Position numbers and translations under genes: made by a program. The notes beneath the pieces were generated by a model, which saw only the letters and a list, made by a program, of their open reading frames with translations, searched no databases and was not told the DNA's origin. From contig DAOOON010000034.1 in the NCBI GenBank assembly GCA_035387745.1, forward strand, positions 1 through 6,745: a DNA stretch of 6,745 nucleotides. The letters are read 5' to 3'. The stretch comes from an archaeon. GTDB lineage: Archaea; Iainarchaeota; Iainarchaeia; Iainarchaeales; CSSED10-239. Positions 1-5,584 of this stretch are shown here, piece after piece (the first letter of the stretch is position 1; each line of letters starts with the position of its first letter).

Positions 1-98
1 GAATCAAGGCCTTGAGGATAAGTAAGTAACTCTATAGCTAGATATCTTTTTTTATGCCTTAAATTTGGCCTGATTACTGCTAGTTTTTTCTTTTTCAT
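1..98 (-). CDS. rnp2: RNase P protein component 2 (Pop5 family). Only the N-terminal 32 codons are in the window; the gene continues past the left edge.
   Basis: Not in the ORF track. Reverse-complementing 1..98 gives ATG at 98..96 and MKKKKLAVIRPNLRHKKRYLAIELLTYPQGLD. The P-x-LR-x-K-K-RY-[IL]-A segment matches my recollection of the conserved archaeal Pop5 N-terminus (LPPTLR-KKRYIAF). The ATG overlaps the TGA stop of the upstream Rpp30-like gene (ATGA, 95..98). Pop5 and Rpp30 genes are commonly adjacent in archaea. Confidence 0.6.
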   Translation of the reverse strand, partial: MKKKKLAVIRPNLRHKKRYLAIELLTYPQGLD

Positions 99-685
99 AA
101 ATCTTCTAAAATTCTTTTTATCATCGCTCTTTCTATCCCAAGATTTCTTAAAAAATTCTTAAGAACTATTGGATCGACAAGGTCTTCAGGAACTTTTGCC
201 ATAGATACAAACCGAAACTCAACATTTCTTTTTTTTAATAGCTCTAAAATAAATAATGTTTGCTTTATTGCTTTGTTTTGATTATATCTTATTTCTCTTA
301 TATCAAAAAAAATAATTTTATTGTTTTGTTTTGCTATTCTTGCTAATCCCTCGTCAAAAGCGGTTTCTGAGGAAATGGGGTTTAAGAGATGAATTTCTGA
401 TTTGCTCGATATAATATTGGTGTTAGCTGAGAGACTGCTGCCTTGTCCAAGAATTAATGCGTTTTTTGTAATCTTGTTTTTTAGATTGCTATAAAGATTT
501 AAGTCTTTAAACAGAAATGCAGGCTTTGTGTTTTTTGCTTTTGGGAAAACAAAGTCAAGGTCTTCTCTTTTGTTTATCTCTTTAACTACGTAAATCTTTT
601 CGATATTTAGTTTCTTTAAAATTTCTTCTGCAGAGGGATAATTGAAAAACTCACTTGAAACTACATCAAAGTATTTTTCTTTCAT
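95..685 (-). CDS. rnp3: RNase P protein component 3 (Rpp30 family)
   Basis: The C-terminal two thirds (HLLNPISSETAFDEGLARIAKQNNKIIFFDIREIRY...LLKKRNVEFRFVSMAKVPEDLVDPIVLKNFLRNLGIE) follow the archaeal Rpp30 pattern as I recall it from Pyrococcus Rpp30 (I-SP...D-LA...KKNV...F-R...Y...L-KY-V...SSA...V-P-DL...LG-E). It sits next to a Pop5-like gene. Start choice: the track start at 730 is a TTG and would overlap argS by 37 nt. The first ATG (685..683) lies 8 nt after the argS stop and 7 nt after a GTGAT Shine-Dalgarno-like motif, so 685 is preferred. That gives 196 aa. Confidence 0.6.
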   Translation of the reverse strand: MKEKYFDVVSSEFFNYPSAEEILKKLNIEKIYVVKEINKREDLDFVFPKAKNTKPAFLFKDLNLYSNLKNKITKNALILGQGSSLSANTNIISSKSEIHLLNPISSETAFDEGLARIAKQNNKIIFFDIREIRYNQNKAIKQTLFILELLKKRNVEFRFVSMAKVPEDLVDPIVLKNFLRNLGIERAMIKRILEDL

Positions 686-693
686 TTTCTTTA

Positions 694-2394
694 TCACATT
701 TTCTCTGGAATCTCTATGCCTAATAACCAAGTTGCATTTTTTAGGGTTTGAAGATAAGTACTTATTAATGCTAGTCTTTGTTCTTGAAGCGCCTTGTTAT
801 CTGATATTACTGGGCAATTTCCATAAAACTTATTAAAAGCACGAGCTAAATCTAAACAGTGACTTGCAATAATATTTGGTTTTCTTTCTTTAGAAGCATA
901 TTCTACTTTGCTTGGAAACTGCATAATCAAATTTAATAATCTCTTTTCATCGTCTTCTAGTTTTTCTGGCTTTGGTGTGTTGTTTATGCCTTTGAAATTT
1001 GCTTTTCTTAAAATGCTTTTTGCTCGTACACCACTATACTGAATATATACTGCCGAGTCGCCTTGAAGATCAAGAGCGGAATTAATATCAAACACAAAGG
1101 TCTTGTTAAAACCAATCTTTAGCATCTCAAATTTAATTGTTCCAAACACTATCTTGTCTATTATTTCTTTGTCCTGCTCTAGGTTGTTTTCAGTTAATAC
1201 TTGTTTTACTTTATCTCGCAATTGATCTCTTAAGTCCTCATAAAGTACCATGCCTCCTGCACGAGAAGCCATCTTTCCGCTTATTAGATTTACCATGCCA
1301 AGAGAAATGTGCTCGTGTGTAGTTTCTGGATAAATCACAGAAAATAACCCAAATAATTGCCTAAAATAAAAATCCTGTTCTGAACCCACAATATAAATGA
1401 AATGCTTGCATTTTGGGAACTTCTGTTTTTTGATTTGCACAAGCGCTATATCTTTTGCACCATAAAGTGGTGCGCCGTTCTTTTTTATTAGCACTAAGAC
1501 ATCCAGTTTTTTGTCTTTTAGGTCTGCTATGATCGCACCGTCACTTTCCTTAATTATATCTTTGTGTTCTTTAAAAAATGCATCTTTAATTTCTAAAAAC
1601 TTCTTTTCGGTCTCGCTTTCAAAGATCTTGTCTACAAGCTCCACTCCAAGTTCTGTTTTAACCTGCATATAAGCATCATAACAAATGTCTCTTAGTCTTG
1701 CTATTTCTTTTTGTAATTCTTTATCTGTTAAAATCTGTTTTTGAATATTATCAATTTCTTTTGTGGAGTTTTCATTATCTTTTGTTTTTTCTCCAGCAGC
1801 AATATAGATTTCTCCAAACCATTTAGAGACGTTCTCTTTAGGAATCTTTTGCTTGTCTTTTGGTAGTTGTAAATAATACCAATACCATTTAGCGACATGC
1901 GTTCCTACATCTCCACCATAATATACTGGCTTAGAATCGTAACCAGAGAAAGATAAAAGACGAGAGATAGCATCTCCTCCAACTATCATTCTTAAGTGGC
2001 CAACATGCAAAGTCTTGAAAGTATTTGCATTAAAGGTGTCAATTACATATTGTTCTTTTGCGCCAGTTTTTGACTTTCCATAATTTTCTTTATTATCAAA
2101 AACTTGAGAAATTGTTTCTGTGTAAAGTATTTCTGGTTTTATCTTAATATTAACATATCCACTAACAGCAAAATACTCAAAAATATCCTGTTTTTCTTTT
2201 TTTAGTTTCTCAACTAAGTCTTTAGAAATGTCATTTGGAGATTTTCTTAGTTCCTTTGATAATGAGAAACACGGGAAAGATAAATCTCCAAGATTAAAAT
2301 CTGGTGGTTCTTCTATGATTTTAAGAGTTTCAGAAATATCTTTTTTTGTAATTTTAGAAATCTCTTCTGCAAATCTTTCTTTAAAGTTAAACAT
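694..2394 (-). CDS. argS: Arginine--tRNA ligase (arginyl-tRNA synthetase), class I
   Basis: 566 aa. N-terminal ArgRS additional domain (EEPPDFNLGDLSFPCFSLSKELRKSPNDISKDL...SGYVNIKI). HIGH motif as HVGH (1996..2007). Degenerate KMSKS region (SGKMASRAGG). C-terminal anticodon-binding helical domain ending in the typical ...PEKM. ATG start at 2394, preceded by AAGGTA 8 nt upstream. Confidence 0.95.
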   Translation of the reverse strand: MFNFKERFAEEISKITKKDISETLKIIEEPPDFNLGDLSFPCFSLSKELRKSPNDISKDLVEKLKKEKQDIFEYFAVSGYVNIKIKPEILYTETISQVFDNKENYGKSKTGAKEQYVIDTFNANTFKTLHVGHLRMIVGGDAISRLLSFSGYDSKPVYYGGDVGTHVAKWYWYYLQLPKDKQKIPKENVSKWFGEIYIAAGEKTKDNENSTKEIDNIQKQILTDKELQKEIARLRDICYDAYMQVKTELGVELVDKIFESETEKKFLEIKDAFFKEHKDIIKESDGAIIADLKDKKLDVLVLIKKNGAPLYGAKDIALVQIKKQKFPKCKHFIYIVGSEQDFYFRQLFGLFSVIYPETTHEHISLGMVNLISGKMASRAGGMVLYEDLRDQLRDKVKQVLTENNLEQDKEIIDKIVFGTIKFEMLKIGFNKTFVFDINSALDLQGDSAVYIQYSGVRAKSILRKANFKGINNTPKPEKLEDDEKRLLNLIMQFPSKVEYASKERKPNIIASHCLDLARAFNKFYGNCPVISDNKALQEQRLALISTYLQTLKNATWLLGIEIPEKM

Positions 2395-2412
2395 AATTTA
2401 TTACCTTTAAAG

Positions 2413-2485
2413 CGAGCCCGGAGGGATTCGAACCCTCGACCCACAGCTTAGAAGGCTGTTGCCCTATCCACTAGGCCACGGGCCC
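2413..2485 (-). tRNA. tRNA-Arg, anticodon UCU (reads AGA/AGG). No intron and no encoded CCA.
   Basis: The reverse complement folds by hand into a 73-nt cloverleaf: GGGCCCG TG GCCT AGTGGATA GGGC A ACAGC CT-TCT-AA GCTGT GGGTC GAGGG TTCGAAT CCCTC CGGGCTC G. It has a 7-bp acceptor stem (one G-U), a 4-bp D stem, a 5-bp anticodon stem, a 5-bp T stem with TTCGAAT loop, and discriminator G. It is GC-rich against the AT-rich background. Confidence 0.9.
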
Positions 2486-2510
2486 ACAATATATATAATT
2501 TAGAAAAGAA

Positions 2511-2523
2511 AATAAATAAAAAT
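2511..2523 (-). promoter_or_regulatory. Candidate archaeal TATA-like element for the tRNA-Arg (and possibly argS) transcript. The same T-rich stretch may also terminate the upstream gene.
   Basis: The minus strand reads ...ctaTTTTTATTTATTttc... about -26 to -38 from the mature tRNA 5' end. This is the spacing expected for an archaeal TATA box with a very short leader. The context is AT-rich, so specificity is weak. Confidence 0.25.
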
Positions 2524-2540
2524 AGAGCAGAAAGAAGCAC

Positions 2541-3617
2541 TTATTGTGCTTGTGCTGCTAAAGATTCTTGAATCTTAGAAAAACTCTCTGGGTTCTCTTC
2601 TATCCATTTTTGTAAAATTGCATATTCTGAGTTTATTCTATTTATGTCTTCTGAATACTTTTCTAAAATACTGTTTTGAAGAGTTTGTAAATTTTCTAAA
2701 AACTCGGAAGAATTATTAAACAATTCTAAATCGGCTTCAAAATATTTTCCTTGCTCTCCTGCACAATTAGCATATACTGCGGCTGATGGCTCTGAACTAA
2801 TCATATCTTTTGGTAAATATTTAATTTTGCCCGTATCAATATATTCAGACTTTAATTGCATTAATGATTCTTGTGCTAGTTTCTTACAATAACCACAATA
2901 ATAATCAGAATAAACATAAACAACAACTTTTGCATTTTCGGAACCAAAAAAGAAATCTCCTTCTTGATAAAACTGGTCTTCCACAACATTCCCGTCCATT
3001 GCTGCATCAATTTTTTCTTTTAATTCTGTATAAGTTAGATAACCGCCAGCATATTCGTTATTAATTATAATTGCAGGAGTTCCAGTTAAACCAATCATTT
3101 GTGCAAATTGTGTGTCTGTAAAAATCTTTTGTAAAATTTTTGCGTCGTTTTCTCCTATTTCTGCAGTAAGGTTAAGGTTTTCTGCAACACATGAATCTAT
3201 TTCAGTTTTATTTAAATTTAATTTGGAGGTTATTTGATCAAATATTGGCTTTTGTTTTACTTGTATATTTTCTAAAAGTTCAGTTTGTATCTTCTGACCA
3301 AATTCTGTTGTTTCAAGCATAAATGTTGAATATTTTTCTATAAATTCTTCTTCCGTTAAACTTACATTTGTATCGACAGGAGTAATTGTTATATTGTGAT
3401 CTACATCCTGATCTGTAATAATTGCCTTTTTGTTTTTTGTTAAAACAATTGTTGCAATTACTGCTCCGATTATTAAAATTATTATAATTAAAATTCCTAT
3501 AATCAAAAAAGTGTTTGATTTCTTTTTTTCTTTGTGAATTATTTCTTTCTTTTCGGTTTTAGGTTTTTTTTCAACTTTTACTTTCTTTTCTGTTTTCTTT
3601 ATTTTCTGTTTTTTCAA
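2541..3617 (-). CDS. Membrane-anchored DsbA-like (thioredoxin-fold) thiol:disulfide oxidoreductase, atypical domain order
   Basis: 358 aa. Lys-rich N-terminal tail (MKKQKIKKTEKKVKVEKKPKTEKK...). One hydrophobic helix (TFLIIGILIIIILIIGAVIATIVL, about 3441..3512), so N-in/C-out topology is predicted. CxxC active site in DsbA-family context (AKVVVYVYSDYYCGYCKKL, Cys codons 2895..2897 and 2886..2888), followed by YANCAGEQGKYFEADLELF. A separate upstream G-L-T-G-T-P-A-I-I-I-N segment matches the cis-Pro loop. The start is TTG at 3617..3615, backed by a strong GGGTGAT SD. There is no in-frame ATG nearby. Confidence 0.75.
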   Translation of the reverse strand: MKKQKIKKTEKKVKVEKKPKTEKKEIIHKEKKKSNTFLIIGILIIIILIIGAVIATIVLTKNKKAIITDQDVDHNITITPVDTNVSLTEEEFIEKYSTFMLETTEFGQKIQTELLENIQVKQKPIFDQITSKLNLNKTEIDSCVAENLNLTAEIGENDAKILQKIFTDTQFAQMIGLTGTPAIIINNEYAGGYLTYTELKEKIDAAMDGNVVEDQFYQEGDFFFGSENAKVVVYVYSDYYCGYCKKLAQESLMQLKSEYIDTGKIKYLPKDMISSEPSAAVYANCAGEQGKYFEADLELFNNSSEFLENLQTLQNSILEKYSEDINRINSEYAILQKWIEENPESFSKIQESLAAQAQ

Positions 3618-3706: not shown

Positions 3707-4705
3707 ATGACAAAAGAATTAATATCAACAGAAAAGATAGAAAACTTAAAACATAAGCATTATGGTATGTTCGGCAAACACTCTGCTGTTGAGATTTGCG
3801 AATGGAATAAAAAAGCTCTGCGTGGAGAAGGCGTTTGCTATAAAGAAAAATTCTATAATGTCGAGTGCCACAGGTGTGCGCAAATAACGCCAGCAGTCCT
3901 TTGGTGCCATCAAAATTGTATTTTCTGTTGGCGACCCGCAGAGTATATGACTATTGATAAATTTACTACTAAAGACTATGACAACCCAAAAGAAATAATT
4001 GACGGATTATTTAAAGAAAGAAAAAAACTGCTTTCTGGTTTTGGTGGTTTTCCAAAAGTTTCTAAAGCAAAACTAAAAGAAGCAGAAGTGCCTAGCCACG
4101 TGGCCATTTCTCTTTCTGGGGAACCCACACTTTACAAGGACCTTTGGAAATTGATTAAGGAATTAAAATCTAGAAAAGAAATTAAAACCATTTTTGTAGT
4201 AACTAACGGAATGGAACCGGAAAATCTTTTGGCTTTACAAAAGCACAAAAACCTGCCAACACAACTTTATCTTTCTTTTGTTGCGCCAAACAAAGAATTA
4301 CATCTTAAAATTAATCGCCCAAAGATAAAAGACTCTTGGGAGAGATTACAAAAGACAATATGGATAATGCCAAAACTAAAATGCAGAAAGGTTATTAGAT
4401 TTACATTAATTAAAGGAATGAACGATGATAAAAAATATATTAAAGACTTTGTAAAAATCTTTGAAAAATCAAAAGCTGATTTTGTAGAAATAAAATCTTA
4501 TATGTATCTTGGATATTCTAGAAAGACTATGGCTATAGACAACATGCCAAAATATGAAGAATGCTTGAAATACGCAAAAGCTTTTGAAAAAGAATCAAAG
4601 GACTATAAGATCTCTGATACTTGTAAACCATCAAAGATAATTCTTTTAAAACATAAGAAATCAAAAGTTGATAATTTTATAATTAAGAAAAAAGGTAGAA
4701 AATAA
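3707..4705 (+). CDS. taw1: tRNA 4-demethylwyosine synthase (radical SAM; archaeal Taw1, homologue of TYW1)
   Basis: 332 aa. Radical-SAM motif CHQNCIFCWRP (C67/C71/C74). Three upstream cysteines, C31/C44/C57, are spaced 13 and 13 residues apart, as in the auxiliary-cluster cysteines of archaeal Taw1 (motif block 3797..3928). Family-typical context: KHSAVEICEWNKKAL...CYKEKFYNVECHRCAQITPA and ISLSGEPTLY. Confidence 0.9.
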   Translation: MTKELISTEKIENLKHKHYGMFGKHSAVEICEWNKKALRGEGVCYKEKFYNVECHRCAQITPAVLWCHQNCIFCWRPAEYMTIDKFTTKDYDNPKEIIDGLFKERKKLLSGFGGFPKVSKAKLKEAEVPSHVAISLSGEPTLYKDLWKLIKELKSRKEIKTIFVVTNGMEPENLLALQKHKNLPTQLYLSFVAPNKELHLKINRPKIKDSWERLQKTIWIMPKLKCRKVIRFTLIKGMNDDKKYIKDFVKIFEKSKADFVEIKSYMYLGYSRKTMAIDNMPKYEECLKYAKAFEKESKDYKISDTCKPSKIILLKHKKSKVDNFIIKKKGRK

Positions 4706-5584
4706 ATGGTTGAACTAAATTCAGAATTAAAAGCAGTAGTTGATGCTTTAAATAATGAAAAGACAATTTGTCTTTTGGCACCAAGCTTTCCTGTAGATTT
4801 TAAGTTCCCGGATATTATTCTAGATCTTAGAAGAATGGGTTTTACTAAAGTTGTGGAATTGACTTATGCTGCTAAACTTATTAATTATAAATATATAAAC
4901 ATAATAAATGAAAACCCCGAAAAACAATTTATTTGCGGTAATTGCCCAACAATTGTTAAATTAATAGAAAATCAATATCCTGATCTAAAAGACAATATTC
5001 TAGACGTTACTTCACCAATGGTGGTTATGGCGCGTTTTGTTAAAAGAGAGTTTGGGAATGATTATAAAACCATTTTTGTGGGTCCTTGCTTTGCTAAAAA
5101 AACAGAAGCCAAAGAAAATTCTGATTGCGTAGACTATGCTCTGACTTTTAAAGAGCTAATAGAAATCTATGATTATTGCGAAGAAAAAAATATTTTAAAA
5201 AATATTGAAGAAAATAAAGCAAACAGGGAATTTGATAAATTTTATAATGATGTGACAAAAATTTATCCACTTGGCGGCGGCGTTGCAAGTTCTATGATAA
5301 CAAAAGACATACTTAATCTTGAACAAGTAATTGTATGCGATGGCCCAAAATGTATAGAAAAGGCAATGTTTGATTTTACTAATAATACAAAATATAGATT
5401 TGTAGATATACTTTTCTGCGAAGGCGGTTGCCTTGGAGGACCAGGCATTGTGTGTAAGGATGATCTTGAAACAAAAAAACAAAGACTATTTGATTACAAA
5501 GAAAAATCAAGATACTACGAGCCTAATGAAAACTACGGAAAGTTCGTGCATGCTTTTGGACTGGATATAAAACGAAAGAAATGA
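4706..5584 (+). CDS. [FeFe]-hydrogenase H-domain-like / Nar1-like iron-sulfur protein, miniature (292 aa). Function uncertain.
   Basis: The three H-cluster signature regions appear in order. L1-like FICGNCPTIVKLIENQYPDL (compare TSCCPGW...YPEL), Cys codons 4934..4936 and 4943..4945. L2-like VGPCFAKKTEA (compare MPCxxKKxEA), Cys 5087..5089. L3-like DILFCEGGCLGGPG (compare ExMxCxGGCxxGGG), Cys 5417..5419 and 5429..5431. Also LAPSFPV, TSP and PLGGGVASS blocks. The ATG directly abuts the taw1 stop, and AAGGTA lies 9 nt upstream. Confidence 0.75.
   Translation: MVELNSELKAVVDALNNEKTICLLAPSFPVDFKFPDIILDLRRMGFTKVVELTYAAKLINYKYINIINENPEKQFICGNCPTIVKLIENQYPDLKDNILDVTSPMVVMARFVKREFGNDYKTIFVGPCFAKKTEAKENSDCVDYALTFKELIEIYDYCEEKNILKNIEENKANREFDKFYNDVTKIYPLGGGVASSMITKDILNLEQVIVCDGPKCIEKAMFDFTNNTKYRFVDILFCEGGCLGGPGIVCKDDLETKKQRLFDYKEKSRYYEPNENYGKFVHAFGLDIKRKK

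Follow-up and report, generated by a model that had tools for sequence, protein, structure and literature searches.

In mitochondria, the excision of tRNAs by RNase P and RNase Z reportedly defines the ends of mRNAs in polycistronic precursors, an arrangement known as tRNA punctuation and said to go back to Ojala et al. in 1981. RNase P subunits are also part of the archaeal exosome/proteasome superoperon. This superoperon is attributed to Koonin et al. 2001 in a passage of PMC2695463. In the pylTSBCD cluster of Methanosarcinaceae, the tRNA gene immediately precedes that of its cognate synthetase (PMC9499178), and the enterobacterial tufB operon (thrU-tyrU-glyT-thrT-tufB) is headed by tRNAs and encodes a protein of translation (PMC6134099). 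In the archaeon Haloferax, tRNase Z cuts at a tRNA-like t-element and thereby generates the 5' end of the RNA located downstream (PMC4326828). Here we describe a gene string on a contig of 6,745 bases (C34, referred to in its entirety as the window) from a DPANN archaeon of the Iainarchaeota, in which the genes for tRNA-Arg(UCU), its cognate arginyl-tRNA synthetase (ArgRS; argS) and two RNase P proteins follow one another on the minus strand. The arrangement is conserved and of a known kind, not a demonstrated new control mechanism, and the string most likely reflects how this streamlined lineage tends to place its tRNA genes, either within tight gene strings or as their first member. A literature search found no described tRNA-Arg/argS co-transcript or unit, nor any tRNA-led operon in Iainarchaeota.

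The locus shares features with each of these systems. Like pylT-pylS(BCD), it has an archaeal tRNA gene that is co-oriented with and directly upstream of the cognate synthetase gene, within an uninterrupted cluster. However, the pyl cluster combines a rare suppressor tRNA with its biosynthesis genes, whereas the Iainarchaeota string combines a major tRNA (80% of arginine codons), a housekeeping synthetase and RNase P genes. As in the tufB operon, the leading tRNA gene would share a promoter with a downstream gene for a component of the translation apparatus. That operon differs in being bacterial, in carrying tRNAs that are non-cognate to the protein, in depending on other processing machinery and in having experimentally established co-transcription, whereas co-transcription is predicted here. 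Similar to t-elements, a tRNase Z cut at a tRNA-shaped element would provide the 5' end of the downstream RNA, which in Haloferax is 5S rRNA or an engineered CRISPR RNA; the t-element is only tRNA-like and precedes non-coding RNA, whereas here a real tRNA would precede an mRNA. The adjacent Rpp30 and Pop5 genes, which in relatives are followed by a gene for the proteasome alpha subunit (PF00227), recall the exosome/proteasome superoperon. In contrast to the superoperon, the Rpp30-Pop5 block of this family is fused downstream of tRNA-Arg and argS, and a membrane-protein gene rather than psmA follows Pop5 in the genome studied. The original prediction likened the string to tRNA punctuation, which turns out to be a loose analogy. 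Mitochondrial mRNAs have tRNAs on both sides and almost no untranslated region and derive from a whole-strand transcript, whereas the predicted argS mRNA has an 18-nt leader bearing a Shine-Dalgarno (SD) motif, a tRNA on its 5' side only, none at the 3' side of the string, and a local promoter.

Layout of the tRNA-Arg(UCU) and argS locus

The window is the whole of one contig in an assembly of 807 kb and 67 contigs (82% complete, ~30% GC). On its minus strand, the tRNA-Arg(UCU) gene (2413-2485) is followed by an 18-nt spacer (2395-2412), argS (694-2394), an 8-nt gap, rnp3 (95-685), which encodes a protein of 196 amino acids, and rnp2 (1-98), a Pop5 gene that overlaps rnp3 by ATGA and runs off the contig end. 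ARAGORN identifies tRNA-Arg(TCT) at 2412-2485 (-) as the sole tRNA of the window, and Rfam RF00005 matches at 69.2 bits (gathering score 29) over 2413-2485, placing the discriminator G at 2413. CCA is not encoded in the gene. Only one tRNA among the 36 of the assembly carries the UCU anticodon and AGA accounts for 79.8% of arginine codons genome-wide, bearing out the earlier claim that this is the major arginine tRNA.

The spacer (2412-2395, minus strand) reads ctttaaaggtaataaatt. It contains an SD-like AGGT at 2406-2403, which begins 6 nt past the 3' end of the tRNA and stands at -12 from the argS ATG (2394-2392). No oligo-T terminator follows the tRNA, where the longest T run is TTT; runs of this length are shorter than the oligo-T runs that stop archaeal RNA polymerase. 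The 566-amino-acid product of argS is recognized as arginine--tRNA ligase by TIGR00456 (360.5 bits; cut-off 261.65) and by the Pfam domains Arg_tRNA_synt_N (PF03485), tRNA-synt_1d (PF00750) and DALR_1 (PF05746), and HVGH and GKMASR, the HIGH-type and KMSK-type motifs of a class I synthetase, are readable in its translation. Conservation at its N-terminus sets in at residue 2 and includes the invariant residues K5 and F8 (alignment A2), and the Pfam N-terminal domain starts at residue 4; given this conservation, the ATG at 2394 is the argS start. The argS stop (TGA, 696-694) lies 8 nt before the rnp3 ATG (685-683) and is spanned by GTGAT (697-693). An alternative GTG start of rnp3 at 697 overlaps this stop, and the GTGA at 697-694 forms an SD motif at -12 of the ATG. 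The stop codon of rnp3 overlaps the rnp2 start within ATGA (98-95). Sequence reading and Rfam thus reproduce all positions of the original prediction, namely the discriminator at 2413, the argS ATG at 2394, the 18-nt spacer, AGGT, the 8-nt gap, GTGAT and ATGA.

Promoter-like and translation signals

The genome makes use of SD initiation, as shown by 4-mers of GGAGGTGATC, the complement of the 16S rRNA 3' end (GGATCACCTCCT). These peak at -13 to -8 before starts genome-wide, with 10-15 occurrences per 100 genes per position against a background of ~1. The AGGT of argS and the GTGA of rnp3, both at -12, fall within this peak. If the argS mRNA is to include its SD motif, it must begin at or upstream of 2407, no more than 6 nt past the tRNA. 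A TATA site ~26 nt upstream of any start at 2407-2412, or of a leaderless start at 2394, would correspond to tRNA nucleotides 43-70 (TGGGTCGAGGGT, CCCTCCGGGC), a GC-rich part of the gene that tRNA function keeps from varying freely. With an 18-nt spacer, an SD motif at -12 and every candidate TATA site in GC-rich tRNA sequence, the earlier contention that there is no room for an independent argS promoter is upheld. By sequence rules, neither an independent promoter nor a terminator separates the tRNA from the open reading frame (ORF), as expected for a tRNA-led operon.

It is very unlikely that argS is transcribed separately, from an unconventional promoter in the 3' part of the tRNA or from TTTAAA at 2411-2406, with the tRNA as a stand-alone gene. 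TTTAAA does resemble a TATA box and promoters can sit in neighbouring genes, as a TATA-like run in the 3' end of glyS before tRNA-Thr illustrates. However, TTTAAA was rejected as the argS TATA box since transcription would then start ~10 nt inside argS, within a protein conserved from residue 2. Such a start would also exclude the SD motif at -12, and for every usable start the position at -26 falls in GC-rich tRNA sequence.

The 55-nt gap upstream of the tRNA (2486-2540, minus strand) appears promoter-like from its sequence. It contains a distal T/A box, TTTTTATTTATTTT, at 2522-2509, with TTTATTTA centred about -31, and a proximal box, TTATATATAT, at 2498-2489. Both AT boxes recur before tRNA-Arg in family loci. 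They may represent a TATA box and a proximal promoter element, with transcription starting a few bases before the tRNA.

RNase P proteins encoded downstream of argS

The two genes following argS encode a Pop5 protein and a divergent protein accepted as Rpp30. Only 32 codons of rnp2 lie between its start and the contig end. However, a second contig, C51, opens with the exact reverse complement of window positions 1-55 and carries the frame on; the 55-nt identity looks like a 55-mer assembly overlap. The continuation on C51 (L002:3-290) belongs to the Rpp14/Pop5 family (PF01900; 34.8 bits, cut-off 23), and the Pop5 ortholog in relative G003 matches the same family at 30.0 bits. The next gene on C51 after Pop5 encodes a membrane protein and has its homologue (E 1e-12) in the same position, behind Pop5, in relative G002, so the join between the two contigs is consistent with synteny.

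The 196-amino-acid protein encoded by rnp3 does not qualify as Rpp30 by sequence. It has no match in Pfam or NCBIfam even at lenient thresholds, with none to PF01876 (RNase_P_p30) at E 10, and 17 database homologues likewise lack a recognizable domain. Two profiles of its family (A1 and A3) gave no match to PDB sequences, and a family ortholog (L035) reaches 21.5 bits against PF01876, below the cut-off of 35. A search of the genome found no PF01876 match anywhere and no other candidate for this family. Its predicted fold is that of Rpp30. An alignment-based AlphaFold (AF2) model (predicted local distance difference test 82.1; predicted template modelling score 0.80) consists of alternating strand-helix units and shows the beta/alpha barrel of PHP type that typifies Rpp30. 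The structures ranked 1-7 in a Foldseek search of this model against the PDB are all archaeal Rpp30 (3wyz, 2czv, 3wz0, 1v77, 6k0a and 6k0b), from Thermococcus kodakarensis, Pyrococcus horikoshii (PH1877) and the Methanocaldococcus jannaschii holoenzyme, with E values from 7.5e-9 to 6.6e-6 and TM-scores of 0.67-0.77. The gene context agrees with the partnering of Rpp30 and Pop5, given that rnp3 overlaps a PF01900 gene by ATGA and that this order is kept across the family. The protein is therefore accepted as a divergent Rpp30 on modelled fold and context, not on sequence, and its family, which is missed by Pfam, can be called Rpp30 in annotation. The gene calls of the original prediction hold on these grounds, with argS identified by TIGR00456 and Pfam, Pop5 by Pfam through the adjoining contig, and Rpp30 by fold and context.

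Conservation among Iainarchaeota

The gene string is conserved throughout the family. Rpp30-like genes are present in all 21 other same-family genomes, and ~9.5 kb around each match was excised and scanned for tRNAs and chained ORFs. A co-directional tRNA-Arg(TCT) lies ~1.8 kb upstream of the Rpp30-like gene in 17 of the 17 loci whose contig reaches that far; the other four loci were left out of this count as a contig end cuts them before the tRNA position. The order throughout is tRNA, argS (~565 amino acids), Rpp30-like gene (~200 amino acids) and Pop5-like gene (~110 amino acids). Counted from the discriminator, 14-51 nt separate the tRNA from argS in 17 of 18 loci (window included), and an ORF of 90 codons is inserted in the remaining one. 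At the genus level, a spacer of 16-20 nt and TTTAAAGG(T)AA are kept in seven of nine genomes. It had been proposed that absence of the adjacency in all relatives would imply chance placement. Instead, every one of the 17 loci keeps the order tRNA-argS-Rpp30-Pop5, indicating that the string is more than chance.

Outside the family, tRNA-Arg and argS are linked more loosely. Among 30 genomes from other families of the order, six have tRNA-Arg(TCT) no more than 1.5 kb from argS. One of these (G045) has a spacer of 36 nt and another a distance of ~210 nt, three have one or two ORFs between the genes and one has a divergent arrangement. Rpp30 is located elsewhere in these families. In other DPANN phyla and in bacteria with this ArgRS type, 27 argS loci were searched for an upstream tRNA-Arg, and none was found. 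Taken together, the six linkages in other families, the separate location of Rpp30 there and the absence of the linkage from the 27 outside loci indicate that the tRNA-Arg/argS linkage is older than the RNase P gene fusion and is specific to the order.

Processing of a putative shared transcript

Judging from the sequence, tRNA-Arg, argS, rnp3 and rnp2 are probably co-transcribed. Next to the observed anatomy of the locus, its conservation, the use of SD initiation and the presence of processing enzymes in the genome, we infer a shared transcript, its cleavage site and any physiological benefit. A promoter in the 55-nt gap upstream of the tRNA would drive a single precursor comprising tRNA-Arg(UCU), argS, rnp3 (Rpp30) and rnp2 (Pop5). 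The tRNA would lose its short 5' leader to RNase P, whereupon RNase Z would cut after G2413 and the CCA enzyme would complete the 3' end. The mRNA freed in this way would begin at ~2412 with an 18-nt leader, in which AGGT at -12 would recruit the ribosome to argS; rnp3 and rnp2 would then be translated by close coupling, through the 8-nt gap with its own SD motif and the ATGA overlap, respectively. The likely effect is that one promoter would serve the major arginine tRNA, its synthetase and two RNase P proteins, with a large excess of tRNA over mRNA set by RNA stability. We regard this sequence of events as a whole, from a single precursor made from the tRNA promoter to excision of the tRNA and release of an SD-led argS-rnp3-rnp2 mRNA, as a fairly probable account of the locus.

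The genome encodes the machinery for these steps, including Rpp29, Rpp21, RNase Z (286.5 bits) and an archaeal CCA-adding enzyme (387.9 bits). A candidate RNase P RNA of ~237 nt is present at C28:4618-4854 (-) (locus L073), with a score of 62.9 bits (E 1.2e-17) that is below the Rfam gathering score of 84. This short, divergent archaeal candidate shares its contig with three tRNA-Ala genes and the 16S rRNA 3' end.

Several observations weigh against a shared transcript. Runs of T5-T7 directly follow the tRNA in relatives G012, G020, G018, G005 and G008. In two of these, G005 (L045) and G008 (L042), which belong to the same genus, the tRNA-Arg(TCT) gene encodes CCA and has a T7 run 9 nt downstream. 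These T runs and the encoded CCA suggest termination or a different route of 3' maturation in those relatives, the former being what separate transcription of the tRNA and argS would entail, and the 3'-end pathway of tRNA-Arg seems to vary even inside a single genus. Across the family, the variation may thus concern termination, read-through or the use of another pathway at the 3' end. In two relatives the spacer reaches 43-51 nt, which is long enough for argS to have a promoter of its own. With the genome at 30% GC, the AT-rich boxes before the tRNA count for little as evidence of a promoter there. Finally, the combination of a very strong tRNA promoter with a low-abundance synthetase requires that a difference in RNA stability be assumed.

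If the four genes do share a transcript, a free-standing canonical tRNA gene would act as a leader with its own promoter ahead of the genes for the cognate synthetase and for subunits of RNase P, which matures this tRNA. Iainarchaeota would then lend themselves, as a natural system, to work on the separation of tRNA and mRNA from a common precursor in archaea, on translation from 5' ends made by RNase Z and on promoter economy in streamlined genomes.

tRNA genes in gene strings across the genome

The close spacing of tRNA-Arg and argS reflects a genome-wide habit, given that 10 or 11 of the 36 tRNAs have a co-directional ORF (at least 100 codons) within 30 nt downstream and that co-directional ORFs are separated by a median of 17 nt (56% of the gaps are 30 nt or shorter). 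The ORFs led by tRNAs have unrelated functions and include those for MutS, a MarC-family protein, a GNAT acetyltransferase, an alpha/beta hydrolase, a DUF1015 protein and Rpp21. The tRNA genes are thus ordinary members of gene strings in this genome, in a lineage where about a third of them seem to head protein-coding strings, and operon predictions for DPANN archaea should admit tRNA genes inside operons. The proposal that the argS string is a dedicated device coupling tRNA supply, charging and processing loses weight on this account.

The same figures could be read as neutral compaction, whereby descent and streamlining brought tRNA-Arg and argS together, perhaps on a shared transcript, and the pairing has no selected function. 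The tight packing of ORFs, the diversity of the genes that follow tRNAs and the placement of a non-cognate tRNA-Thr after glyS all fit this possibility, and descent alone predicts conservation within one family. It is nevertheless rather unlikely. The genome contains two cognate tRNA-synthetase adjacencies compared with ~0.1 expected (36 tRNAs x 2 neighbours x 1 in ~800 genes), though this estimate is rough and post hoc. The second is a cluster on one strand of asnS (NF003037; 482 bits), tRNA-Asn(GTT) and asnA (PF03590) at C23:636-3190 (L191, L071). The recurrence of tRNA-Arg(UCU) near argS in six of the 30 genomes from other families also speaks against a purely neutral origin, as does the position of three of the four RNase P protein genes behind tRNA genes across the family.

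Three further ORFs were considered as cognate synthetases next to tRNAs and rejected. A class II synthetase of 507 amino acids before tRNA-Thr(CGT) proved to be GlyRS rather than ThrRS, so the pair is not cognate. The 586-amino-acid ORF before tRNA-Gly encodes a transglutaminase-like protein instead of GlyRS, and the ORF beside tRNA-Trp encodes a beta-CASP nuclease instead of TrpRS. In the first case, tRNA-Thr(CGT) begins 9 nt past glyS (NF003211, 482.5 bits; C2:14750-16878; L185, L063), and a further 14 nt on comes an ORF of 169 amino acids that matches no family. The two ORFs leave no space for signals around this tRNA-Thr, and no other place in the genome comes as close to punctuation.

RNase P protein genes behind tRNAs are not confined to the argS locus. 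At C6:7568-7975 (L195/L066), tRNA-Gly(GCC) is followed after ~23 nt by a gene for Rpp21/Rpr2 (PF04032, 37.3 bits), and this pair is kept in 21 of 21 family genomes (loci L196-L215). In other families of the order, tRNA-Gly is co-directional and upstream of Rpp21 in 7 of 30 genomes. Together with Rpp30 and Pop5, three of the four RNase P protein genes therefore stand behind tRNA genes family-wide, which keeps alive the idea that the leading tRNA acts in feedback.

One form of this idea treats the leading tRNA as a cis-acting control element. ArgRS might bind the unprocessed precursor and block the SD motif, in the manner of the thrS operator, or cutting by RNase P and RNase Z might set the lifetime of the mRNA that encodes RNase P proteins. 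The position of the SD motif only 6 nt past the tRNA, the short spacer in most of the family and in G045, and the family-wide placement of Rpp30 and Pop5 behind tRNA-Arg (17/17) and of Rpp21 behind tRNA-Gly (21/21) in the genomes that could be checked are compatible with such control. However, equally short spacers precede unrelated genes, and the linkage in other families spans 200-1200 nt or includes intervening genes, which would preclude occlusion of the SD motif, making cis feedback an extremely improbable explanation. A broader version, in which the RNase P protein genes of Iainarchaeota are deliberately placed behind RNase P substrates, so that tRNA excision sets the stability or translation of the RNase P and ArgRS mRNAs in a substrate-sensing homeostatic loop, is speculative and distinctly unlikely.

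Neighbouring genes and other observations

Just upstream of the tRNA in the window, a co-directional gene (2541-3617, minus strand) encodes a protein of 358 amino acids with a C-terminal DsbA/thioredoxin-like domain (PF13462, 74.7 bits) and an N-terminal region that matches no domain. On the plus strand, the segment 3707-5584 encodes TYW1 (4-demethylwyosine synthase; TIGR03972, 354 bits), which ends at 4705, and a protein of 292 amino acids, which starts at 4706, leaving no gap between the two. Of the [FeFe]-hydrogenase large subunit, the latter has just the C-terminal domain (PF02906, 141 bits), and it thus represents a Nar1/HydA-like fragment adjoining a radical-SAM enzyme of tRNA modification.

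Elsewhere in the genome, a GC-rich element of ~40-50 nt that ends in ..GCGCG..ACCGAGCGAAACCGGTT abuts tRNA genes at C2:16990-17045, C16:2580-2631, C23:2020-2069, C28:6390-6442 and C56:167-230, and also occurs near tRNA-Leu(CAA), tRNA-Leu(AAG), tRNA-Thr(TGT) and tRNA-Ser(CGA). This could be a small mobile element, a leader or trailer helix, or another RNA. It is found either 5' of the tRNA and co-oriented with it or 3' and inverted, with the GAAACCGGTT end always on the tRNA side.

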